From: Podarcis vaucheri
Lineage: Eukaryota
DNA length: 64,000 nt
Direction: 5' to 3' (one strand)
Assembly: GCA_965113315.1 (NCBI GenBank)
Contig: OZ220372.1
Part shown: positions 18,801 to 52,362 of the stretch, in pieces
Numbering within the stretch: the first letter of the stretch is position 1
How the letters are laid out: the number at the start of each line of letters is the position of its first letter
The notes under the pieces: model-generated
Database searches by the model: none
Told to the model about the DNA's origin: nothing
Seen by the model: the letters and a program-made list of their open reading frames with translations, nothing else
Position numbers and translations under genes: made by a program

Positions 18801-20460
18801 TTATTGTCCTCTTGAGGGAAGAGGCAGCCATTTTAGAAATAAACAGGACCTTACTGTATAGAGGTTGGTGGAGCTTTGTTTTGTTTTTTAATAAATATTT
18901 TAATTAAGTTTTCACATAATACATCTTTAAAAAACAGGCAGGTGGAGATTTGGTGGATACCCTTCTGTCATTATTTTTACCAGGTTTGCTATGCACTGTC
19001 CTGGACTTTTTCACTTAACATGGAAAGTTGTGTAGTGTGGTGTTGCTTGTGTAGCTTAGTCTAGACTGGCAACTGATCTTTTGCGACTGGATGGAGATGT
19101 CCAGGAGCCACACTTGGTGCTTAGCATCTCCAGCTGCCTGGCTGCAGTCAGCTCGTTTCAGCGCAACAAAAAATGCACCTTTTTTGTGCTGCCGGGTGAA
19201 TCAGGTTTTTGGAAGGATAGTGCAGTAGCAAAAGACATGTCTTTTGCTGTTGCACAACCCTGCAGACCCCCTGATTCTCTTGGCAACTCCCCTCCCCCCC
19301 AGTGAAAAGAAAAGGCACCTAGACATTTTGTTTTGGTGCCCACAACCTACGTCCCAGGAGCCACATGGCTCCTAGCATTCCTATCCCAGTTTCTAACCGC
19401 TGCTCATCAGTTGCTTTTATAAACCATAACTTGTTGAGATCCTAGTTTGATTGTAGGAGAAAGACAAGAAGGCATTTGGTTCATTTACCCTTGCAATGTA
19501 AGAGAGGTTACACTGCATCAAGCAAATAGATCACATTTCCATTTTCTGGCAGCAGGTAGAAGGGGGAGCTAGCAAAGGTATTTTGGCAATTACTGGTGGT
19601 GAAAGCAGGGTTTTCTGGAGCAGTATAATTTCTTATGTATCTTGTTTCCTTTTAGCATGCTTCATAAGCCTGTTTTCTCTCCCTTCCCCCATATCCCCCC
19701 CCCCCTTTGCATATGAAGTGTTGCTTTACTTAGCAAGTCAAATGCCAGGCAGCCTGTCACTCTCATGCACAGCTGCTTTTGGAATTAGCATATGGACAAA
19801 AGAGGTGGGGAAGAGCCTTCTTGGGCAGGTGCTGTTCTTCAGTCTGCCCAGTGTCAGAATGCCCTAGTCATTCCCCAGATAAGATGCATACACAGCCATC
19901 TCTTGCATTGCTGTTGAACACCAGCAAACAGATTTGCTGTGACCTGAAATATGTGTGAACACGCAGGAAGAAAGAATTCTTTGCAGCGAAGGAGCTCTTT
20001 AATATGTCTGCTTAAGCCCAGACACAAATTATCATAAAGCTTGTGATTTGTAGGCTTTAAGAAGAAAAAGAAAAGAAAACCTGAAATATGTAATAAGCTC
20101 TCCCATGATCAGAGAACAGTTCTAATTCCTGTTAACACATTCCAGAGGGGTAGTTGAGTTTCATGGCTGCCAACGAAAAGCTTATGCCACAATCAATCTG
20201 TTAGCCTTTAGGTTGCCTCACGAGTTTGTTGTATCTTGCAGACATCATATTTTGATCAGTAGATCCATTGTCCTTTTTCTTCATGAGACAGATCCCTCAT
20301 GACTTCTGTTAAGTTGCATTTATAACTGAAGGAGACCAGTTAATGTGACATATTAATACAAGGGCTCTAACTTCATTATGTCTCACAATTACCCCCCCCC
20401 CAAATGTCTAGCTCCTGCCTTTGCCTGTACTAAGAGGCTATTTATTCTTTTATTTATTTA

Positions 20461-21216
20461 CCGTATTTTTCGCCCCATAAGACGCACTTTTCCCCCTCCA
20501 AAAATGAAGGGGAAATGTGCCTGCGTCTTATGGGGCAAATGCAGGCTTTCGCTGAAGCCTGGAGAGCGAGGGGGGTCGGTGCGCACCGACCCCTCTCACT
20601 CTCCAGGCTTCAGGAAGCTCTGCGCAACCCTCGGGAGACCGGCTCCGAGGGTTGCGCAGAGCTGCCTGCAGTCCCGGGACCAGCGCAGCTCTGCGTGGCC
20701 ACCGGGAGCCGGGGGAGAAGCTCCGCCCCGCTCCCGGTGGCTGCGCAGAGCTGCCTGCGGTCCTGGGACCAGCGCAGCTCTGCCCGGGAGCCGGGGGCGA
20801 AGCTCCGCTCCCGGTGGCCGCGCAGAGCTGCCTGCGGTCCTGGGACCAGCGCAGCTCTGCGCTGCCATCCGGAGCGGGGCGCTAAGCTCCGCCCTGCTCC
20901 CGGTGGCCGTGCAGAGCTGCCTGCGGTCCTGGGACCAGCGCAGCTCTGCGCTGCCATCCGGAGCGGGGCACTAAGTCCTGCCCCGCTCGGGATGGCGGCG
21001 CAGAGCTGCCTGCCCTCCCGGGACTGGTGCACTTCTCCCCATCGCCAGCCCCACAAGCTTGGGGAACAGCGGGGAGGCAGAGCGTGCCTTCCCACTGTTC
21101 CCCGACCTGGTTCTTCCAGCCCCGCACCTGGGGGGGAAATTTTTTTTTCTTTATTTCCCCCCAAAAAACTAGGTGCGTCTTATGGGCCGGAGCGTCTTAT
21201 GGGGCGCAAAATACGG
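20461..21216. mobile_element. pogo/Tigger-like MITE with internal GC-rich ~89-bp minisatellite
   Basis: 24/25 TIR ccgtatttttcgccccataagacgc with TA TSDs. Internal units start at 20656, 20745, 20822, 20911 and 21000. Inserted into the tail of a LINE fragment that continues to ~21490. Confidence 0.88.
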
Positions 21217-24200
21217 TATACATAACCTTCATTTTTCCTGACAGGACTCAAGGCGGCTTACAGATAAAAATAAGAACCGCTAAAAACATTGAAAAAACAA
21301 TAATGATAAAACAACAAAACCTTGATAGAATTAATACTATATACGTATATAAAATATATTAAAACTATACCAATAATTACAATAAAAACAGCCCTGCACC
21401 AGCCCTTTCATTAAAAGCAGTCAGTTCCCAAAAGCCTCTTGGAAAAAGAAAGTCTTCACCTGTCGGCGGAAGGACAACAAGCAGGGAGCCTGTCTAGCTT
21501 ATTTTATAAGGAGTATGTGTACACTCCAGTTATGCCAGTTCTCTCCTCTTCCCCATTTCTTACAAAGGGTTTCTGGACTCTCATAACAACTCTTATCCTC
21601 ACTTCATCCCTCTCTACTCTTTTTGTTATGCCTTATCTTTTCCATTATTTTTCATCTTGTTTGAATTCTGAATGCCTTTGTCCTGAAGGCAGGGTGTTCT
21701 TCTGAGTGATGTTAGTGCTTAGTCCCATGATGGCTGTTGTCATGGGCAGTTTTTTTATACTAATGGGAGTAGATTTGTGCATAGGTAAGTATCCTCAGTC
21801 ATGCCATGTGTGGGGAAGCTATCTTGATTGGTATGGTAATGCCCACTAACTACTAGAGTACCATTTACACCCACACCCTTTTCTACAAATCCTAAGCGTT
21901 CTTTTAACTGTTGCACTTTGCCTGACTTGTACCGACCTTTCCCCATGAGTTTCTTTCTCCCAAAAAGTAGTGAGACTTAGTTGATCTTCTGTAACTTGCA
22001 GCATTTAAAAGACTTAATAGTTGAAGGTCAGTATAGATCACTGTGACCTTGAACACCAAGTTCTGAAGACAAAATGGCTACACTCTGCATTTGACTTCAG
22101 AATAGCAATTAACTGCATCCAGATGGTCTGCTTGCAGAGTGACATGTTGCCCACTTCACCTCTATTGTGATGAGGCTGCAGAGTCCCTGGAACCAAACAT
22201 GCCCATGTAGCCATTTGGCAGCCAATCAAAATATCCTTGTGATCAATTAGATGAACAGCTTCCTTCCAGAGTCACATTGCTGCAAGATACTGCAATCTCT
22301 GTTGTAGGCTTGAAATGTTTCACTTTGCTTCTCTTTCCCTCTTCCCAATGAACTGCATTGCAATAATGTATCTGCAAATGCAGTATTTGGGGAAGAGAAC
22401 AGAACATGGGTGACCTGTCTGTTCCTGACTTTACTGTTTGTAAACTTAAACAACCTACCTCTCTCATTTTTGCCTAATAATTACTTTCTGTGGCTGAAAG
22501 GACGGAGCATGTGTCTGTTAGGTATTGCTATAAAGACCAATGTGAGTTTCTGTACTATAAATATCCCCAGATTAATAGGTCCCCAGATAATATGTCCCCA
22601 GACAAACTATGGAGTAGCTGGCTTAACATTATGCTCAAAGTAGTGCTTGTGGCTTTATACTTTTCAAACAAACCAGCCTAAGGCTAATGTTTGTTCTAGG
22701 CTTCCTGACTATGTTTTTTTGAAGAGAAACAAATCACAAGTGCTGGTTCAGATCCAACACTAAGCCAGCCTTCCCGTGGTCTGTTTCTCCACTCATAAGG
22801 GAGGAATGAGGTGGAAGAGCTTGAGCTAGGTACACCAGCACAAAGTATGAGCATGTTATGATTAAGACAGACAAACTCCACTTGGCTTAGCATCATGTGT
22901 GAATACGACCAGTATGGTCCAATTTCAAAAACTAACTGTAGAGAAGAGGTGAAATCCTCCACAATTGAGGTTATGGGCTAGGTGTTCAGAAACTAGAGAA
23001 ACTGTGGGGGAAGGGATACTCTGCTGGCTGAACTTGAAACCTAGGCATAGCTTATTAAACTTGGTTTTAAAAGGGTGCATCCTTGGTAGACAAGCTGATT
23101 GCAGTCTACAAACTGTGTTAAAGGGCTTTAATACACTTGTGGAGAGTTACTGTTTTAATAAATGTTGACAGCTAGATCCAAGTGCATAGAGCAAAAGAAC
23201 CATCTGAATCTTTAATGATGTGGATTGCTGTAGCTGCTATTCAGGCAGGTTTTTATGTAGAGTATGTGGAACCATGCTTCCATATAGTATAGAAAACTGC
23301 TTGCTTTGCTTGCTTGCTTAGGTTCTCTTTTTGTTGTCGGATCTAGTATAGTGAGACTCAAAGTTTGTGCATTATTGAAGGTGCACAAGGAATCTCCTTT
23401 TTTTGAAAGCTCTTTTTGGGTTTTAACAGTTTTGAAGTAGATATATGTTTAAGTAAAATTGCAAGCCTCAACAGCTTCCTTAGCTGTGAATGAGGGGAAG
23501 TGGAAAAGGCTCAGGAATTGTAGGCAGGGCAAACAAACACACCACATCCTTTCATCTCTGCTGCACTGCCTTGCATATTTTAACCAGGAAGATGCCTCTT
23601 TGTTTGATGGCAGCAATCCTTTCAGTTTATCACATACAACTTTGGTAGAATAACTGGTTGCAGTTTTAGGCAGCACAATGGACTCAAGTTCGTATATTTG
23701 TATTTGCTGTTAAATTCTGAATTTTCTCAGTAAGCAGTGTGCTTGAATAAGTGTGTGCCAAGTATTCTAGAGTTGCATATACATTCTGATGGGTCATTAG
23801 TGACTTTCGAGTGGGTCTCTTAACCAATATAAAGCCTTACGTGGAGGTGAGTTCTAGCATGCGTAAGTGATGATGTATGTATGCTGGTTGCTGCTTTAGT
23901 GTGAGCAGCTTTGAATAGTAGAGAATCTGTAAGCTGGGTTAGTGACCTACTCCAGTGACCATCTTAAGACCTGCTTGAGTCACTTACGTAGCTTCTCTGT
24001 TCATTCTTGCAGGAAACAAAGGGAAGGAACTGTACCCTTTTCATTTATGTTTGAACTGTTGCTTTCTCCCAGATCTCTTTTAAAACCAAAAGCAATATAT
24101 TGACAGATGGGAAGATTGCCAAACTGGTGAGAAGGAGAGAAAGTAAACTCACTAAGAATTGATCTGCCTCTTTTCTCTATTCTTCCTCTTACCTCCACCA

Positions 24201-30314: not shown

Positions 30315-31683
30315 TACATACAGCAAAATGTAGTCTCCAAACAGGCCTTGAAAAGTTTACACTCTGCATTCTTTATGTGTACAGAGAATCCACTAGTTGT
30401 GGGTAGTTAGTACTTCATGCACCTTATAAATGGGCATCCCTTCATGGATACATAATAAATTGGTTGGTATTTAGATGCCACAAGATTCCTTGTGCCTGCA
30501 TCATGTGTGTTTTAATTTGCACTGTCCCCCCCCCCTTTTTTTTTTGTATGATTAACTTATAGTACTCATTATGTGACATCTTGTTTGGATGACAGTAAGT
30601 TAAGGATTCTGGCTGTAAATGCCATCTGTCCAATGAACACAATTTGTGAAAATGACTCATCAGCTTAGCTGGATGCCATCTTTCATAATGGCTCTAAATT
30701 CTGGCAAAGTCTGAGGAAGCTAGAAAGTCAGGCAGGAGGATAATTTAGGATAAGGTATTGTTTAAAATCAAAACCCTAAATGCATCTTCTAGTGCAGTAG
30801 TTTCCAAATTTTGTCATGAGGGTACTGAAAGAAAAAGAATCTAAGGACGAAAAACATCTGCCTGCAGGGAAGCTGTTTGCTGTTACAGACATACACACAT
30901 TCAGCATCTTATTTGTATGCCACCTTTCCGTAGTTTAAACCATGCTTAAGGCAGCTTACAACATGAAAAAAATAATACATAATTACATAGCAAAAGTAAT
31001 CTTCAACAATAAATAAAAGTACACATTCAAATTGAACATTTCCACATAGATCATAAGATCTAAAATAAGATACAAAACATTATATCAATAACAGCAACAC
31101 ACACCCCTCCAAACAAAACACCCTAAACAACCCCCCAGCCCAACAATCTGTTCAGTAGCCTCAGTTTTTGTAGCTGGAGTCAGGGCCCTGCCTTCCCTGG
31201 CCAGGTGGAAAAAAGGCCAGTAAGACAAGGACTCCTAGCCAAGATGCTTATTCCACCGCTCTGGCCTGCCTGCCCTCCTTTCCATTCTATCTTTACAGGA
31301 GGATGGAGACTTTGTTCTGTCCATCTCTGCTTTTGGAAATGATTAGGTTTTTCTGATACTCCAGTGCAGAGGATGCTACTTGCTGAATCTCTACAAAAAT
31401 TGCTGCTCTGGGCTTTGTCTCCTTCCATTTGGGAGGCACACTTGGAACAGTAACTCCTGTTGCAGTGCATGGGAAGGACTCCTCCGAGGGAAGGTGAAAT
31501 TCTTGCATGTCTGAATGCGCGCACACACAGAATGTGAATGTAGTCATGAATTCAGGGGGGAAAGTCTCATTTGCTTGCTGGAAGTTTGAAGAATTTGTTC
31601 TAGAATATTTCTGTACCTTCCAGGAAGTTGTAAATTTATACAGAGGATCAGGAGATGAAATATATAGCAATTGAAACTTAGTA

Positions 31684-31885
31684 CAGTGGTACCTCTGGTT
31701 ACGAACTTAATTTGTTCCGAAGGTCCGTTCTTAACCTGAAACCGTTCTTAACCTGAAGCACCACTTTAGCTAATGGGGCCTCCTGCTGCTGCTATTCTCA
31801 TCCTGAGGTAAAGTTCTTAACCCGAGGTACTACTTCCGGGTTAGCGGAGTCTGTAACCCAAAGTTTGTAACCTGAGGTACCACTG
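31684..31885. mobile_element. Tc1/mariner-superfamily MITE
   Basis: Perfect TIR cagtggtacctc / gaggtaccactg with TA TSDs. Confidence 0.85.
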
Positions 31886-32129
31886 TACTGGGAATACTAT
31901 TTTGCAAATATTGAAGGTTTTAATTATCGTGAACTGTCAGTTCAATCTGTGGACTGGAGCAGACAAAACACCTTTGAAGTTTATTCTTCCACGACTGATG
32001 TAAGTGCTGCACTTTTTTGGTCAGTCAGTGGTACATGAAGGCCAAAGTTTCTTTCTGCCACTCACAGCCCACTGACAGTGAGTCTTTATTTCAAGGCTTG
32101 TGCTACAGTCTCTAGTGTGCTTAGAAAGC

Positions 32130-33043: not shown

Positions 33044-33237
33044 GAGTGTTTCTGGCTCTGGGCCTTAGTGGGGTCATCCCCACCCTGCACTTTGTCATCA
33101 CGGAAGGGTTCCTCAAGGCTGCCACAATGGGGCAGATAGGCTGGCTGGCTCTCATGGCCTGCCTGTATATCACTGGCGCTGCACTGTATGCTGCTCGCAT
33201 CCCGGAGAGGTTCTTCCCGGGCAAGTGTGACATCTGG
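33044..33237 (+). CDS. ADIPOR2: Adiponectin receptor 2, exon 7
   Basis: VFLALGLSGVIPTLHF...YAARIPERFFPGKCDIW; 194 nt; donor TGG|GTAAGT. Confidence 0.98.
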
Positions 33238-33892
33238 GTAAGTATGGCTAATAGATGGCAGGCACATAATAGGGAGGGTGAGAGGCATTAATGCCATTCC
33301 TACTGCATATCTGCAGTGATGGATCACTGTGGTCTGTGGCCGAGCTCTATAAAGACACAGTTCAATAAATGCCTCTTACTGCTCAGTTCTGGGCTAAAAT
33401 GGAGCCCTGCTGTGCAACTGCTAACTTTAAAACCCCATGAAACTCTGCAACCTTCTCTTGGTAGGCATTACAAGAATGAAAAATATTTGCACTGTATCTG
33501 CCTTGGCATATCTGGCTCCCAAGAGAGGGAATGGTGCACAGCTGCAAAAATACAACCATTCTGATACAGCGCTGTTAATGCTCTGTCTTTGTTTGTTTAT
33601 GTGTATGCGAGCATGTATCTTGTCCTCTAGCCAGTTATGCCAAGTTGACTGGGGCTGGGTGGGTTTAAATTGGCACCTCTTGGTGCTTGCATAGCCTGTT
33701 CACACAGAGAAACAAACAATGGATTCCTAGGAAGCAAGAGGGCTTATTCTTTGGCTGGCTTATTCTTTGGCTTCACAATCTCTACTTACTAGCCAGTACC
33801 ACCTATGATGCTCTCCTTTGGTGACTGTTCTGGAAAATGGGAGTCTCCATTACCTAAAGTGAAACAGTGTTCTGTTTTTCTCTCTCCCATAG

Positions 33893-36474: not shown

Positions 36475-38519
36475 AAGAGCAAATGCAATGGAGGCTTGAT
36501 GGGTGTTGTCTTTTTGGTCTCATTCATGATCATATAAGAACTGGATGGACGTATAGAAAAGTATGGATGGGAATGTGGCCTGGAAATATAGAAATTGGTT
36601 TGTGTTACATTAAATGGTGAAAGTTGTTCTTCCATGTTTTTGAACCAAGAGTAGAGAACCATAACCCTTCCCGATGTTTGGGGTTTTTTTAAACATTTTT
36701 TTCTCAACACACCATGTGCTCATATATTAAGGTCAGTTTGACAGTGTGAAGCTCTTACACTATACTGGACTATTGTAAATACATCTAAGCACATTTACTT
36801 GTGAATGTGTGGGTCCATTTTCAGCATAATTCCAGTATGACCTATGATGGGATTTTGTGGCATATTGTGTATGACAACCAAGAAAAACATGAAACAAAAA
36901 TATAATGAAAATGTCATATTTTAAAAAGAGGCCAAATGTCAAACACATATTACAAAAACAAAAGCAAAAGTTCAACATCTTCTGTACTGTCACAAATCTC
37001 TCTTGGGGATTTGAGAGTAGGACTTTCTTATTGAAATGCTAGTCATGTCAAGGAAATACATACCAGCAGTCCTGTAATATGGCTTCCTTCCTTTGCTTGC
37101 TTTCTCCATTTCTGAGGTCTTAAGGTCTTGGCTATCCAACCATCAGCCCACGCCTGGCACGTAAACTACTGGGATCTAGAAACGAAAACTTGGTGTGGTG
37201 AAAATTTTGCCCATAATTTCGTTCATAAGGCAAAATGGCTTTCAAAAGTTGAGAGAAATTTCACATTGTATTAGCACACCTCTGAGGGATTACTCTCTTC
37301 CCTGAAAACTGATAAAGATTGTATTATACAGCTGGTGCATCCATGAAGCCGTCAGCATGTCTGGCAAAATAATATTGTGGGATACAGTAGGAACTGGAAG
37401 GCGACAGTCATATTTCCTGTGCATCTGTACACTTCCCAAAAGTGTCTGCTTTTAAACATTTGCGTCTAACAAAGCTAATGTGCACACTTAGCCTCGCCAT
37501 GTTTAATTTTGTAACCTATGTAATTTTGTAACCTATGCAAGGGAGTTATGGCTAAACTCCTTGTCCAGTGATGTGAAGCTGAGGGAACTTGAGAGGTGTG
37601 GACAGAAGGAATATTTCTAAGGCTAGAGTTTAAGTTTGCCTTAAGAACACAGAAACATAGGTAGAAACATTATTCCTTTTAGCTCAGTACTGTCTACACT
37701 GGCTGGTAGTAGCCATCCAAGGTTTCAGATGAAATTCTCAACCTGCAACCACTCCCCATAATGCATCAAGCCTCTTGAAATAGAACACATGGAGCTATTT
37801 TCACATCAAGCTGATAAATCTAATCATTGTCTGAATCAGCTATTTTAGAGGAAAGCTCTCTGTGTAGCCTTAGAAGAGCTTAAATATCTGCAATAGGCAG
37901 AGTTGCAGGAACTCCTTGCCGGTTACAGGAATCCCTGCCAAAGCCTGGCTTGGCAATATTGTTCTCCAGTTCCTTGACAATAGAAATGAAACTCTGTTGA
38001 TGACCATTATATTCTCTAAGAAGGTAATATTCCTGCCATTCCTGCAGAACTGCCCAGGTGTCTGTTAAGTTAAAAGAAAGGGGATTATGAGATGCTTCTC
38101 TTTAGCAGATAGTACTGACTGTTCCCATTTTGCAGCTAGGGTAAGTTATAGGTTAAGTCCATGCATTCGGCAAATGCCATCCACTGTTCCAGGCCTTTCC
38201 CCCACCAGTGTAAACTTTTCCATGCTGCTAAGGCAGGGAGGGGAAGCTGTGAGATCACACAGCTTGGTGAGCCTGTTGGTCCATAGCCATAGGTGCCCCA
38301 CCCTCAGTTGCAAGCTTCTTGAAGAAAGGAAGCCCCACTTCCAAACACAACACAGCTAGCAAGTTCCTTGGGAGGATGCAGCCGAAGAAGTTCCTGAGCC
38401 TCTGTGGCATTGTCCACATGCTCTGGCATGCAGCAGTTGTCTTAAGTGCCCAAGTAGCATGGTCCTCAAAATAGAGCATTTGCCTTTCTGGTCCAAAATA
38501 AGGACTTTGATGGGCCTTG

Positions 38520-40475: not shown

Positions 40476-40754
40476 CAGTGGTGCCTCGCAAGACGAAATT
40501 AATCCATTCCGCGAGTCTCTTCGTCTTGCGGTTTCTTCGTCTTGCGAAGCACGGCTATTAGCGGCTTAGCGGCTATTAACGGCTTAGCGGCTTTAAGAAA
40601 AAGGAAACAAACTCGCAAGAACTTGCAAGACGTTTCGTCTTACGAAGCAAGCCCATAGGGAAATTCGTCTTGTGGAACGACTCAAAAAACGGAAAACTAT
40701 TTCGTCTTGCGCGTTTTTTGTCTTGCGAGGCATTCGTCTTGCGGGGTACCACTG
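40476..40754. mobile_element. Tc1/mariner-superfamily MITE
   Basis: TIR cagtggtgcctcgcaagacgaa / ttcgtcttgcggggtaccactg, TA TSDs, repeated internal cgtcttgcg motifs. Confidence 0.88.
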
Positions 40755-42899: not shown

Positions 42900-43184
42900 C
42901 AGTAGTTATCAAACTCCACCCCCCAGTCCACTTGAAATTTGCTGAGGGTCTTGGGGAACCACTTAATGATATCTCTACCTGCTGTAGCAGTTGCAATTCC
43001 ACAGAATTCAATTTGTAATACAATAAAATACAATATTAAGAAAATAAAGGAAGTGATAACAATGCAATTAAAAATTGACACAAAAGTAAATGCAAAGGAT
43101 GTATGATTTCCCATCTTCAGCCACAAATTCACAGACACCTTGAGAACCACTTGTGGTCCACAGACCTCACTTCAGGAACCCCTG
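42900..43184. mobile_element. Old hAT-type MITE
   Basis: CAG...CTG termini with degenerate TIRs; 8-bp TSD atctagaa / atctggaa. Confidence 0.6.
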
Positions 43185-45404: not shown

Positions 45405-45522
45405 TTCTGACAGTCTCCGCATTCAATAATCCCATTGGTCTCTTTGATGGCAGGTTCATATACAAACACTGGGTATTCTGTGTCACATGGCTGTAGCATG
45501 TCGTGCTTCTTGTGCTTGTGAG
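45405..45522 (-). CDS. CACNA2D4: CACNA2D4 exon (start of delta region)
   Basis: [38 protein letters not shown](K); 118 nt; AG/GT boundaries. Confidence 0.96.
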
Positions 45523-48500
45523 CTGAGATGGGGAAAAAGAGGATGAGTGAGAAAATCGGGTGAAGGAAACAAATGAGGTGTGGGAAAAAGAAGCGGAAAG
45601 ATGTTGACCCAAAAACGAAGATTACTGGCAGCCACTAGGTGGTGTGGGAGACTCAGTGTATGAGGATGCCCTAGAAGCATGAATTTGGCCACCCTTCAGC
45701 CAATGGTCGGATTATGTAGCTATCAGTCTGGCAGGCTGTTTACTGCTAGAAAGTCAAAACACACAAACAAGTGGGAAACCACTTGCAGTTAGTTCATGGT
45801 TAGAATCAAACCAGCTGGCCAAGACATTACTAGGTGGCTCATATGGGGGAAACAGGAAGACTTTTTACTAAAGACAGTGACTGCATGAAATATAGCGGGC
45901 TGGGCTGGGCTGGTACAGCACCAATATTTAGTGATTGCAGCTAATTACGTAAGAAGGAAGCTTTACTAGAAAGAAAGTCCACTACCCAGCTCCCACTAGC
46001 CAACATATGAACTGACTACTTGCAGTGGAAAGATCTACATTTTGGGGACCCTGAAGCTTGAACTGTTACGGGGGCCCTTCGGAATCAGCAACAAAGCCTG
46101 AGTAATCACTGTTATCTCCTTCAATGGGGTTGTTCCATGACAGATCACCAAACCTTTACAACACCTGTGCTACTGACTGTCAGACTTTGGTATTGTTGAA
46201 ATATATTTATAAATAATGACTTTTGAAGTTTTTGGAAAGCTGAAATCCAAAACATTTAAGAAAGCATAAATATTGTTTAAAATATTTATGTTATTAACTG
46301 AGTATACAAAACTATTTTAATTGTGTTGCATGTCAACATTTTTAACATTTAGGTGCAATATTTATTTATTTTAAAGAAACACCAGGTGTCATTGTGACAT
46401 TTTGAAGGACAATGTATGATGTTTAGATTTGAGGATAGCTGAGATAATGTGTGGATATGTTTGCACAGAGAAAAAAATAATCACCTGCCAGATAGTCAGG
46501 GAGTGGGTGAACTGGTTGGTCATCAATAACAGCAGAAGTTTGCATTTGATAAAACTAACAGTGGGGCTGCTGTTCTTCAAACAGAGAAATGCTCAAAATG
46601 CTGTTGGACATTTGCATCACACTGGCCTGAGGGAGAAAAGCTGTGCTGGCATTTATTCTCTTGTGCAATGACGACAACTCAGAGACGCAAAGATATTGCA
46701 AATGTCACACAAACATGTATAGAGTCTGTGTCACTCATTGGGAGTTGAAACAGTGACAACTATCCAAAAAACACACCCTTTTCTAGTTTGTTTTTAATCT
46801 ATCCATTTTTATCTCCCTGCCCTTCAAGGAGCTCAGGATCCTCTTATCATCACAACTCCCTTCTCAGGTAGGTAAAACCTGTGAACTCTTGGAATTGGAA
46901 TCAAGCAGGTGATTGAGCCTGTCCAACACTCTAACCACCCTGGCTCTCTCACAAATCTGTGACTGTAGCTTTTGTGAAAATTGCAGTGCTCTAATCTGGA
47001 TACAAAGCTTGCAACACCATTGCACACAAAATAAAGACTTGTGTAGCCCATCTGTCAAGCACCAGTGAAGCGGGGAGAGAGAACTGGACTCGCCTTTCCT
47101 TGTTGCTTCCTGCTGGGAAGTGAGTATCAGAGCTCCCATTGCTTTGTCACAATGGTACCTGTCCTTCCTGAAGGGTTTGCAAGTGACTGAATCTCTGCTT
47201 CAGTGAAACCATCACTGACAATCTGATTCCTCCCATTGCTTTTCTTTGCCTGTAATGTTGTTCACCAAGTTTCCCTCAACGTAACTATGCAGCAGATTCC
47301 CTGTTCTAATCTTTCAACTATGAAGGAAGCAGCAGGCTATTTTAACACAACCTCCCTCAACTGGGATTAAAACCGAAATAAATTTATGCCAGATGGTGCA
47401 ATGAGTATTGTAAACAACACCTACTTGTTTTCCTAGGTCTTATTAAGTTTCCATGCTGTATAGCAAGGATTTGTCCAGTCCTGCATAGGTCACCCCGATG
47501 TTTTGCATTACCCCTCTGCCCTAAATTGGTTGTCTTGTCTAAGGTCTTCTAGATAAGATTTGAACCTGGAACCCCTCAACTCACCAACTCCCTAGAAACT
47601 AATAAAGGTCGCTGATTAGACAGCTTGTCTACAATGTGACAAAATGTAGGTGGACAGGAGTCTTAACCACAGTGCAACCCGGATTGGGTGAGCCAAATTT
47701 AGCATCTGTATAGATAGACCCCACATTTAGCACTCAATATATCTTCTAGGTTTCTCTTCTAGTGCAGTGTACCTTACTAAAACCAAGAAATTACCCAACA
47801 TGGAAAATATGTGGCCTATCCAGGATGCAAAACTGTGAGTTATAGCCGTACAGTTACATGTCCACAACCAGCTCACTCTACATATCCAAACTTTGACTCT
47901 CCTTCTCCTCAAGGTAGAACTGCATTAGTGTCATGTGTGGAAGGGAAGATCCACAGCATGCTTGCCATCTTCTTACTGCGTTTCATTCACAAATAACATT
48001 TGCTCCCGGAGCCACAGAGATTCATTCTGTTCAAACTCCCTTTTGTCTCTCTGTTAAACCACACTTTAACTGGATCGGAAGTGAATTTCCTCATACTCCA
48101 AACAGTTCCTTGGACACAGAGCAATAACAGCAATAAATTGAGCCTGAGGAGAGGGAACAAATTCAGTCAGCTTCAACACAGTGAAGCCACTGCTACATTT
48201 GGGGCAGGGCATTCCCTTCCCCCCTCATCCCCCAGTTTCATTCCACAGATGAGCATGAATTAACACCTGAGCAGCATCGGCAAAAAGGAGCAAAATGTCA
48301 CTGCCATCCTGATATTTGCAGTCACATTGATCCGGAAAAATAACAACAGAGATAGGTTTTAAATTGCTGGCATTTCACTGTCAGCAGGGCAGCCCAAAGA
48401 TATTTTTTTTCTAGCCCAAGCAGCCGTCCATGTGACCAGAGATCAGCACCTCTGCACCATTTTATGATACTGCAAAGGGCCTTGAGTTTCTGTATCTCTG

Positions 48501-51077
48501 CTTTCCTAAGTCATATATTATTAAATATACAAGACCACTGAGTGGTTTACGCAAAATTGTATGAAATCTCTCTCACAGATTGCTAGATGTTACAGCACGG
48601 GCACAGGACAGCTGCTCCCCAGTGGGGGCTGGTGTCTATTGTGATAGGCAGGTCGTAAGGCATGGATGCCAACAGTAGGAGGAGCCAGAGCTGATGATAA
48701 GCAGAACTAATTCTAGTTTAACCCCAATCCTCCTCCACAGAAGGGCAACAGTGGCACTTCAAAGAAACTGACAGGCAGGGCCAGCCCCTAGACTGGTTGT
48801 AAGAAAGAAGGCAGTTGGGAGCTGGTTGCCGTTGGTAGGGCAGTGCTCTAGTGGCCTAATAGATCAGCGCCCACTGCCTTCTCTGTCTTCCAGCCCTCAT
48901 GGGTTGGGTACGTTGGGGAAATAACTAAATCCCCAAATACTACTCTCCACCAGTTACTCCTATGCCGCTGTCCTACTTCCCCAATTCCTCCGAGGCTTAT
49001 AAGCCACCAGCAATAGTCTGGAGGTTTGGAGCCTCTTATCCCCACCCTTTATTTATTTATTTATTTAATTGAATTTATATACCGCCGTCTCAGGGCAGTT
49101 CACCCTTATCTACCTGTAGCCCCTCCTGGCTGATTACTGGCTGGGCTACTCATGAGCAAGCAACCAGTTTAACAACTTCTTTGCCACAGGAGCTTTAGCA
49201 ACTGCTGGTGTTTGGAATTTGGGAAGGAAATAATATCTCTTGCCAGGATATCATAGAGAAGGTTTTTCCTCTCCTTGCCTAAGGGCAGGCTGGTGCTCAG
49301 CTGACCTGGGAAGTACCCTCACATGCCCCAGCTCTTACATGTTGAAGCTTTAGTGACATATTGGAACATGGGAAGTTACTGGACTATCTAGCTCAGTTTG
49401 GCTACACTGATTGGCAGCAGCTCCTCAGGGTTTCAGGCCAAAGCTATTTTCAGCCCTACCTGGGAAATAAGGATTGAACTTGGTGTCTTCTTCATGCAAA
49501 GCAGATGCTACACCACTGAGCTATGACCCATCCCCTGTTGTTGGATTTACTGGCAGCTAATCATGATGACAAATGGTGTGAACTATGCAAAGAGTTTTAA
49601 TATTTATCTTGGTTAGGTATATCTTATTGACATAAGGGCAGCTCCCATATTTCTTATTTCTATAGACAAGCCATTTATCAGCCAGCCTTTGTCTAAATGG
49701 TGGAGGGAGATTAAAGGGCCAGAGCTGCTTATTCAGCCAACCTGTAATCATATCTGCTTCTCTAACATAAATAAATTATGAGAAAGTTGAATGAACTTAT
49801 TTATTGAAGTTGCTCTAGCGATCAGAACCTGACTATCTGCAGTTTTCTGAATAATACAGTTTTGCTGGATTTCCAGTTGAGTGATTACCACCTGTCCTCA
49901 TGCAATTCTGCAAACAGGCTGAAGTTTCTTTCTGAAAGAGTCTTGCCCACCTCTAGCTAATTATCTCTACTTGCATTTTGTACCTACTGAGAATGCAAGA
50001 ATGTCCTCTCGTGTTTCTTTCTGAGCTCCATATTTGACCTGGATCCTCTGATTATTATGGATCCTTTTAGAGCAACCATAGTACATGGGAGCTCTGGTTG
50101 GGGCTCAACTAAGGTTACCTCCCTTCCTGCATGATGCAACCACCACCATGTCTTTTCTCTTGCACGAGTGGCACCTCCCTAGTCCACCCTTCCTCCTTTC
50201 TTCATCATCCCGCTATTGTTGGGTTTACTGGTAGCATGCTAATTATCATGCAAACACTTAGGCCTGGCCTGATTCAATTACCACTCATGAACAATTGAAC
50301 AGAGGAAAGAACTCCTTGAAGTTCTTACTCTACCTCTAGACCTTGGGATACCAAGCGTTATTTGAGACATCAGGCACCAACTCCAGAAGCAGCACCTATT
50401 GGTCTGGCCTAGTATCACAGATAGCAAGATCAGAACCTGATTAAAAGCGCCATAGGAAGGCCTATGCATTTGTATAATGTGTAAATGTACTGAGAATGAA
50501 ATGGGGGGGGGGAGCGGAAGAATAGAAGATGGAACGCTGATAAACCTTGCAACTTTTCAAATACTGATTTGTTCCTTTATAATGGACCAAGCTTGTTGTA
50601 AAATATCATTAATATTGAAGAGCAAGACTTGCAAATATCAATATAAGATTCACTTTAGCAGCGTCCAACAGAATTCTCCACCCATTGCCTATTGCCCAGT
50701 AAGAACTGCTGCCATGCAACCTTAATTCATTTCAGTAAGGCTTGTATGGGTGAACCCGCATGCTTTGCACAAGCTGTTGTTGTTTGCACATATTGGCACA
50801 TCCCTAGAGCTACTGCACATCTTTATATTCAAGGTTATAGTTGGACCAGCAAGTGCAGAAACTTGCAGTGAAGTATGCCAATCACACAGTGAGTGGTAGC
50901 ACAATAATTAAACAAATAGTGATAACTCTGTTTTCAAATAGGCAGTCACAGCTAATTCCTGAACAGCTGTGAAGTGGGAAAGAAATTGCCCCCAGTTTTC
51001 TGGGCAAATCTGCTTAGGTGTTCTCCTGTTTCCAGAAAATGGAGATCTTTTTGCTGTACTATAATGATTCTACTTAC

Positions 51078-51098
51078 CATGATGGAAAACAGCCTTGG
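51078..51098 (-). CDS. CACNA2D4: CACNA2D4 21-nt microexon
   Basis: tatag|CCAAGGCTGTTTTCCATCATG|gtaagt = (A)KAVFHH(A), matching mammalian AKSVFHHS; phase 1-1. Confidence 0.88.
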
Positions 51099-52306
51099 CT
51101 ATATAGGTTGCATGGCATAACATGTGATGCAGATGAATCCATGATGATAATCACAAGATGGTGGTAGAATTCCATGGTGAAGACACATGAATAGGAAGAA
51201 TGGGAAATGAAGAAAGAAAGAGGAAGAATGACATGGTGGTGAAATGAAGAAATAATTGTTCACAATAGTAACAATGAGTGTGAGACTACTCCTTAAAATT
51301 CACCTGCCTTTACAGTTAACTAAACTGCTGTTTCATGAGAAATATGTTTTATTGTCTTATATCCTTCTTTTCTTCACATAAGCCTATGTGAAGTGAATGT
51401 GATTTGCTTAAAAATACTAGAATATTTGACACTGAAAGCTTTGGCCTGCACACTCCTAAATGTTTAGGAGCAGGCAATGCTTTCAGAAACAAGTACAATA
51501 TTGGAAGTACACCCTGGACTAGAGAGAGACAGCTATTCTATCTGGTTAAAATATGTGTAAGCAACATAATGTATGTAACCAGCATATTACTGTTGCCAAA
51601 CCCTAGAAGGCAGTACCATAAGTAACATTTGCTGTATGAGATTGTGCTTTTGAAATGATTTCTGCCATTTATTATTATTAAATGAAACGTATTAAGAATT
51701 AATTATATTTAGAAAGTTCTTTCTTTCTTTCTTTCACTAAAGACTGCCTGTGTTTTTCTACTTTTAGCTTACATTGCTGTTATGTTTCAAAAATTACCTC
51801 CAAGATACGGAGGACTGGAATGGAAGGAATAAAGTTTCGTAATTTTAAGAGCTCATAGACAAAGCGACACTTGCTCAGAGTGCATGTGATCCACAGACCA
51901 CAAGTTACCCACATTGCTGTTTTAGACACTGTACCACAGGCTTTTAGGGGTCTTAACACTGACACCCTTCCCTGCACGTTCCAAGCAAAGTGCATGTAGA
52001 TGAAAGAACTGGCCCACTGCTTCAGCAAATAGTTGTTAGTAGTCTTCCATCCACTTCATGGGATACCCCAACACAGACCACATATATGAGCTGACACAGT
52101 TGACAGTGTTATTAAACCTTGCCAGTATATTCCAGGGTGTCTCAATAAAGGTGAAATGGAAGCTGGCGAATAGATTCTCAGTGCCAACAGGGTGACAATG
52201 TCTCTGGATTGTGCTAAATTGCATTCGTATGTGTGATTCCTTCATCCAAGCCCAGTGGCTGCAAAATTGTGTGTGCTGTGAGCTGGCTGCATTCCCATAT
52301 ACTCAC

Positions 52307-52362
52307 CATCTGCCAAATTGTCTGTGTGCCAGAAGCCAGATATGTTGAACTCCAGAAAGAAT
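52307..52362 (-). CDS. CACNA2D4: CACNA2D4 exon
   Basis: (I)FFLEFNISGFWHTDNLAD(A); 56 nt; ttttgacag| and |gtgagt. Confidence 0.9.

Follow-up and report, generated by a model that had tools for sequence, protein, structure and literature searches.

The CACNA2D4 locus and its 21-nt microexon

We analyzed a 64-kb window of the lizard Podarcis vaucheri genome (64,000 nt of contig OZ220372.1, assembly GCA_965113315.1), focusing on a 21-nt microexon of CACNA2D4, the alpha2delta-4 gene, and on the 3' splice-site region in front of it. A 40-residue exon downstream of the microexon matches 195 proteins; among the 120 of these that are listed, nearly all named homologues are alpha2delta-4 and four Podarcis entries are 100% identical, which therefore identifies the gene as CACNA2D4 of a lacertid lizard. 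Nine coding exons were located by tblastn on the minus strand, from 62072 to 38523, and all coordinates of the gene given below refer to that strand. The microexon (51078..51098) is frame-preserving, adds the residues (A)KAVFHH and contains two YCAY tetramers (Y, pyrimidine). It lies between a 56-nt exon that ends in phase 1 (52307..52362, by tblastn) and a 118-nt exon (45405..45522, by tblastn and homologues). Its donor, GTAAGT after ATG (51072..51077), is near consensus, and its acceptor AG (51099..51100) lacks a proximal pyrimidine tract. Splice joints 52307->51098 and 51078->45522, both with GT-AG ends, were present in contigs of two of the four runs, X6 (organism C) and X8 (organism B); these two runs are RNA by an automatic guess, and contigs show presence only. 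Run X1 yielded no joint, and the raw reads of X23 (about 12 in 100 of them) had no depth on the exons, blanks that we do not count as evidence. An initial annotation, made from the DNA letters alone, had named the gene and the microexon, and homologues, tblastn and splice joints at the exact coordinates now establish both.

The microexon-encoded insert is found in 36 of the 120 listed homologues, from amphibians to primates. A further 27 listed homologues are clean insert-less protein models, which we did not count as evidence of skipping because gene predictors miss microexons. The last base of the exon (51078) differs between groups: the insert ends in Ala in 16 listed homologues, all squamates, and in Ser in 20, of which the 18 with a readable name come from birds, turtles, amphibians and primates. 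A T-to-G exchange at donor position -1 in the squamates is implied; it would make the donor stronger and could in turn require more repression.

A 185-nt AG-free zone upstream of a weak acceptor

No AG occurs in the 185 nt upstream of the acceptor (51101..51285), the next AG being the acceptor itself at 51100-51099. No AG-free run in the 64-kb window is longer on either strand (the runners-up measure 135, 131 and 125 nt on the minus strand and 119 nt on the plus strand), and the longest in 30 kb of the paralog CACNA2D3 is 134 nt. AG was absent from 89 of 5000 base shuffles of the zone, and its absence is partly due to the G-poverty of the zone. We also considered a hidden coding exon or a tandem duplication within the zone and rejected both: only short CA/UC-rich matches were found, with no repeat family beyond them, the stretch is single-copy in a genome search, and the RNA joint skips the zone.

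The acceptor has the weakest proximal tract among the ten CACNA2D4 acceptors examined, with 53% pyrimidines at -4 to -20 compared to 59-100% for the others. A UC-rich tract with UCUU motifs, a possible U2AF2 or PTBP site, is instead displaced upstream (51190..51230); the 20 nt after 51229 are 95% pyrimidine, and 8 UCUU motifs were counted. Two UGC trinucleotides start at -14 and -19 (51110..51117), where they form a candidate SRRM3/4 enhancer, and a third starts at -33. Farther upstream, the branch-like motifs CTCAC and CTCAT (51274..51284) offer candidate branch adenosines at -183 and -177. The initial annotation had described the AG-free zone, the missing proximal tract, the UGCs at -14 and -19, the UC-rich tract and the distal motifs, and each was confirmed at its position.

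Statements taken from the literature here and below derive from individual passages and supplementary files of the papers cited. AG exclusion zones longer than 150 nt are reported for 165 of 67,334 human exons, and from half down to a fifth of the human zones of at least 100 nt are estimated to mark a distant branch point (PMC1431707). At 185 nt, the zone exceeds the length of at least 150 nt that serves as a sign of a distant branch point. The best pyrimidine tract begins ~45 nt downstream of the distal motifs, which are themselves followed by only 57% pyrimidine, and yTnAy branch-like motifs occur at -177, -147, -142, -110, -90, -80 and -36. A distant branch point for the microexon is likely but unproven, the motifs being candidates; of the earlier proposal of a branch point at -175 to -185, the motifs stand, as one option among several.

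A dense YCAY array within the zone

Seventeen overlapping YCAY tetramers occupy 51112..51247, an array that we consider a likely NOVA silencer from its sequence and its persistence in relatives. The whole 185-nt zone holds 19 overlapping copies (15 non-overlapping), with the two in the exon in addition. Its extent overlaps that of the displaced pyrimidine tract and takes in several YTCAY motifs that resemble branch sites. The runners-up among 136-nt windows contain 9 YCAY in the 64-kb window and 10 in the CACNA2D3 control, which gives the array roughly twice the density of its closest competitor in the 94 kb examined; the second-densest cluster in the window, at 45514-45649, also lies at an acceptor. 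When the base composition of the zone was shuffled, 5.4 +/- 2.0 YCAY were expected versus the 19 seen, and 0 of 5000 shuffles reached 19. A YCAY cluster directly upstream of or inside an exon is the arrangement of NOVA-repressed exons, and both elements are found here (17 in 136 nt plus two exonic, reproducing the counts of the initial annotation). Upstream or exonic YCAY clusters generally repress inclusion (PMC10987577).

Sequence change among close relatives

DNA contigs of three related organisms (G, F and B) were aligned to 50680-51310. Organism G carries 4/179 substitutions upstream of the exon versus 25/367 and three indels downstream (Fisher p = 0.025). The corresponding values are 4/188 plus a 6-nt insertion versus 22/397 for organism F (p = 0.08; 51077-51120 not covered) and 1/212 versus 11/398 for organism B (p = 0.07). 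Pooled variable sites amount to 6/179 upstream and 40/396 downstream (p = 0.005), a figure that takes seven untabulated F rows as distinct sites. Relatedness among the three organisms means that the tests do not count as independent, and five G differences and two B differences lack listed positions. Overall, change in the zone proceeds at about a third of the pace seen in the downstream intron. No YCAY is lost and no AG gained through the five substitutions listed upstream, one of which, common to all three organisms, creates a YCAY. The two proximal UGCs show no listed change in organisms G and B, while organism F has no coverage there. These data argue that the zone is under constraint among close relatives, a constraint that does not by itself identify the protein that reads it. 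The conservation anticipated by the initial annotation therefore holds, as slow change without YCAY loss, for three close relatives. A search of metagenome contigs for orthologous vertebrate introns gave 0 matches for a tight pattern and 46 for a loose one, and none of these had a YCAY-rich AG-free region upstream.

The orthologous exon in mouse and zebrafish

The mouse orthologue (chr6:119,345,430-119,345,450, mm10) is likewise 21 nt long and lies between exons of 53 and 118 nt (PMC4991804). Its inclusion is 0.82-0.90 in wild-type retina and 0-0.12 in Aipl1-null retina, which lacks photoreceptors (PMC4991804, supplement). In zebrafish, inclusion is 0% in brain (5/5 samples), 83% in muscle (n=4) and 68% in eye (n=5) (PMC9509328, supplement); the row labels of that sheet look swapped, and we used the computed percentages, which agree with the preprint legend. 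The microexon is reported to be conserved to cartilaginous fish (PMC9509328 and its preprint), and its deletion in mice produced no reported phenotype (PMC9509328). The alternative splicing and photoreceptor inclusion suggested by the initial annotation are thus supported, the latter from the mouse and zebrafish orthologues rather than from the lizard. A mouse guide RNA (PMC9509328) resembles the lizard sequence at -57 to -45, with 12/13 matches and one gap. This likeness was equalled by 51 of 1000 shuffles within 300 nt and by 158 of 1000 over 2.2 kb, and is a hint only.

NOVA as the probable repressor

Taken together, we propose that the 3' splice-site region of the CACNA2D4 microexon on balance probably carries a NOVA-bound silencer laid over the displaced pyrimidine tract. 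The array sits atop the distal tract and most branch-like motifs, so that a bound protein would compete with U2AF and U2. In this model, NOVA on the array would block U2AF/U2 loading at the distal tract and branch region, and NOVA-expressing neurons would skip the exon. Photoreceptors, which lack NOVA (PMC4991804; PMC5989265, Nova1/2), would include it. PTBP1 on the UCUU motifs might block the same step in non-neural cells. With NOVA and PTBP1 both absent, the strong donor and scanning to the first AG would permit inclusion; SRRM3 on the UGCs would then probably assist and not act as the switch itself. A repressor expressed in neurons would be expected to cause skipping in inner retina and brain and to leave inclusion intact in photoreceptors and fish muscle, and this is the pattern reported. 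Retina microexons have been treated as a class in which SRRM3 is the activator and NOVA, RBFOX and ELAVL are proposed to repress from upstream in other neurons (PMC9303857; PMC10987577). The model of NOVA versus SRRM3/4 put forward in the initial annotation is hence already in print for that class.

Several observations weigh against this proposal. Dinucleotide-preserving shuffles of the zone give 15.7 +/- 1.7 YCAY, and 268 of 5000 reach 19; what is in excess is therefore the CA dinucleotide flanked by pyrimidines. The initial expectation of about 2 YCAY is right as a window average (2.3 per 136 nt) but falls below both the composition-based and the dinucleotide-based values. An AG-free run of 100 nt and 9 YCAY in 150 nt likewise occur at the constitutive acceptor at 45522, which shows that long pyrimidine tracts gather YCAY by themselves, at half the density of the microexon array, and the YCAY motif as such overlaps branch consensus and pyrimidine tracts. 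Taken by itself, the absence of YCAY loss among five substitutions lacks significance (p = 0.22). The lizard runs contained no skipping joint, though their contigs show presence only. Mouse non-neural tissues are reported to skip the microexon (PMC4991804), and NOVA alone therefore cannot be the whole rule; either a further repressor or the lack of an activator would have to account for such skipping, and the candidates are the UCUU tract (PTBP1) and the UGCs (SRRM3). Among 12 of the 15 supplementary files of PMC5989265, Dataset S9 gives the mouse exon a score of 0 for Nova, Ptbp, Rbfox and Mbnl. The Nova list of that study is a 363-exon network from an earlier one, and low expression of the gene in brain could explain the zero Nova score. 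Our literature search found no NOVA binding or knockout result for the CACNA2D4 exon and no paper testing NOVA or SRRM3 on it, with VastDB-type tables, figure alignments and bioRxiv supplements outside the search; the main text of PMC6952364, in the parts available, does not mention CACNA2D4. Anatomy and tissue pattern thus favor the NOVA half of the initial annotation, and the absence of the mouse exon from the NOVA target list speaks against it.

Alternative explanations

The exon could instead be a low-sensitivity SRRM3/4 microexon, whose shifted tract and branch demand very high SRRM3 levels in photoreceptors and whose YCAYs are a compositional by-product. We regard this as rather unlikely, although its length (21 nt, within 3-27 nt), preserved frame, strong donor (ATG/GTAAGT), UGCs at -14 and -19 and weak proximal tract with the pyrimidines shifted upstream match the SRRM3/4 layout (bioRxiv 10.1101/2024.09.17.613571). 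Retina microexons also need higher SRRM3 activity than neural microexons (PMC10987577), and one match over the cut-off indicates an SRRM_C domain gene in the lizard genome. This match (G000:C38:22791054-22791212) has an internal TGA, probably an exon border. UGC is neither necessary nor sufficient for the SRRM4 response (bioRxiv 10.1101/2024.09.17.613571). On the other side, we found no CACNA2D4 splicing row in the 18/18 supplementary files of PMC9303857, which list the gene in expression tables only. Within the gene, 5/9 other acceptors have a UGC within 25 nt as well, and the roughly twofold lead of the array in YCAY density also weighs against a by-product. Muscle is not known to express SRRM3/4 and contains little PTBP1. 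Zebrafish muscle nevertheless includes the exon at 83% (PMC9509328), which makes a strict need for SRRM3/4 doubtful, and the SRRM3/4 half of the initial annotation is accordingly the weaker one. The zone might also serve chiefly as a spacer for a distant branch point and be repressed by PTBP proteins or further pyrimidine-binding factors, NOVA playing a marginal part. In keeping with this, it is longer than the 150-nt class of PMC1431707 and contains 8 UCUU motifs, and PTBP motifs are enriched upstream of photoreceptor exons (PMC4991804; PMC6952364). However, PTBP1 is absent from inner retinal neurons and photoreceptors alike, and yet Aipl1-null retina and fish brain skip the exon (PMC4991804; PMC9509328); with the Ptbp score of 0 for the mouse exon (PMC5989265), we consider this explanation quite unlikely.

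Two further explanations involve sequence downstream of the exon. Musashi binding there would drive photoreceptor inclusion, the upstream zone merely weakening the acceptor. Musashi does drive many photoreceptor exons (PMC9509328; PMC4991804), and organism G, although it has a deletion of 3 nt, retains the UAGs at +6 and +17. We find this very improbable: the 200 nt downstream hold three UAGs, at +6, +17 and +124, whereas at least three spaced 10-15 nt apart characterize Musashi targets (PMC4991804), and the passages of PMC9509328 do not name the mouse microexon among exons reduced in the Msi1/Msi2 double knockout. Alternatively, a long-range RNA stem between 51105-51117 and 50710-50722 would hide the UGCs and loop the exon out. 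The far arm, 355 nt downstream of the exon, is a perfect 13-nt complement of the near arm (13/13 Watson-Crick pairs) with pair probabilities of 0.80-0.99 in an 801-nt fold; the near arm covers both UGCs, and the far arm contains one UGCAUG. In the relatives, however, differences in the far arm occur at 50714 (in G as well as F) and at 50720 (in F) while the near arm of G is unchanged, leaving the change uncompensated and also removing the UGCAUG. Moreover, a partner of equal strength exists for 14/400 random 25-mers from the gene. A conserved 13-bp stem, with both arms kept and changes compensated, was rejected on this basis; the pairing is most likely due to chance, and a role for it in skipping is extremely doubtful.

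A predicted position in the alpha2/delta cleavage loop

In a HMMER alignment, LADAKAV of a lizard homologue corresponds to LLEAADM of alpha2delta-1, the position of the alpha2delta-1 cleavage site LEA//VEM (PMC5092059; PMC9016415). In lizard CACNA2D3, the corresponding exon junction falls in TTK/AQ, and replacing the alpha2delta-3 hexapeptide MTAKAQ blocks cleavage (PMC5092059; PMC9016415). Because of this alignment and this junction position, the microexon is predicted to insert seven residues into the alpha2/delta cleavage loop. Our search found no paper on the alpha2delta-4 cleavage site, which is not given in the passages of PMC12303104 and PMC9456004, and a structure prediction for a full-length homologue did not succeed (mean predicted local distance difference test score 29).

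The visual test of the exon-knockout mouse comprised A-wave amplitudes and histology only (PMC9509328), whereas a full alpha2delta-4 knockout, according to a review, keeps its a-wave normal but has no scotopic b-wave (PMC11938310). A synaptic function is therefore compatible with the negative result. One could imagine the microexon as a cell-type switch on alpha2delta-4 proteolytic maturation. A NOVA silencer would drop the seven loop residues in inner retina and brain, photoreceptors would keep them, and cleavage, Cav1.4 activation or ribbon-synapse wiring would be altered, the 'dispensable' verdict then being a blind spot. We consider this extended scenario unlikely.

Significance

What drives photoreceptor-specific exons without Musashi is an open question according to the Musashi papers (PMC9509328), and NOVA repression in other neurons has so far been a proposal from motif counts (PMC9303857; PMC10987577). 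The CACNA2D4 exon offers a clean single test case, with very dense YCAY, a large published switch and no Musashi cluster. CACNA2D4 causes human cone dystrophy (PMC11938310), and the predicted cleavage-loop position gives reason to ask again why evolution has preserved a 'dispensable' exon from cartilaginous fish onward. If present in human, the AG-free zone would also mark where deep-intronic variants could disturb splicing.

Other features of the window

On the minus strand, a U-rich run of 131 nt without AG (42981-43114), located between the exons at 45405 and 41396, ends in TGC-containing sequence and is followed by AG, CAG and GTAGAG, an arrangement like that of a 3-nt microexon whose donor is weak. 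An X6 contig joins the 45405 and 41396 exons directly, without this candidate. On the plus strand, 33061-33240 encodes an exon of an HlyIII-family gene (Pfam PF03006, E = 8e-15), which from its sequence and position we take to be ADIPOR2, in tail-to-tail synteny with CACNA2D4. Between the CACNA2D4 stop (38523) and this gene lies a 135-nt AG-free U-rich run on the minus strand with 9 YCAY (36844-36978), possibly 3' untranslated region; minus-strand poly(A) signals occur at 37507 and 35839. An inverted-repeat nest at 20459-21236, with a GC-rich core and terminal arms, looks like a non-autonomous DNA transposon, and smaller nests lie at 31680-31889 and 40482-40743.

Comparison with known systems

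Within the alpha2delta family, alignment places the microexon peptide on the delta side of the alpha2delta-1 cleavage site (LEA//VEM), and the microexon is inserted at the exon junction inside the alpha2delta-3 hexapeptide MTAKAQ. Unlike in these two proteins, the alpha2delta-4 site is placed by homology only. No matching microexon was found in the corresponding lizard CACNA2D3 intron, where YCAY density peaks at 6 per 136 nt and no AG-free run exceeds 94 nt. PTB exon 11 and GABBR1 exon 23 (PMC1431707) share with the lizard exon a >150-nt AG-free zone, branch-like motifs at its 5' end and alternative use. In contrast to them, the lizard tract is not adjacent to the 5'-most motifs, other candidates lie from -147 to -36, and the branch is predicted only.

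The retina microexons (RetMICs; PMC9303857; PMC10987577) resemble the CACNA2D4 exon in being short and frame-preserving, with an acceptor UGC, upstream YCAY and inclusion in photoreceptors but not other neurons. Their repression is a proposal from motif enrichment, and CACNA2D4 was not found as a splicing event in the supplements of PMC9303857. Unlike RetMICs, the CACNA2D4 exon has no upstream RBFOX motif, and its fish orthologue is also included in muscle. The closest system is the mouse Cacna2d4 microexon, although its upstream intron is 333 nt long compared to 1208 nt in the lizard, the upstream YCAY array and AG-free zone are undescribed in the passages and supplement rows of PMC4991804 and PMC9509328, and the last base of the exon is G in squamates versus T, judging by the encoded Ser, in other tetrapods. 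Gene, length (21 nt), place between 53/56- and 118-nt exons and peptide family are all the same. The 21-nt exon is thus already known from mouse photoreceptors, and the lizard provides a further example.

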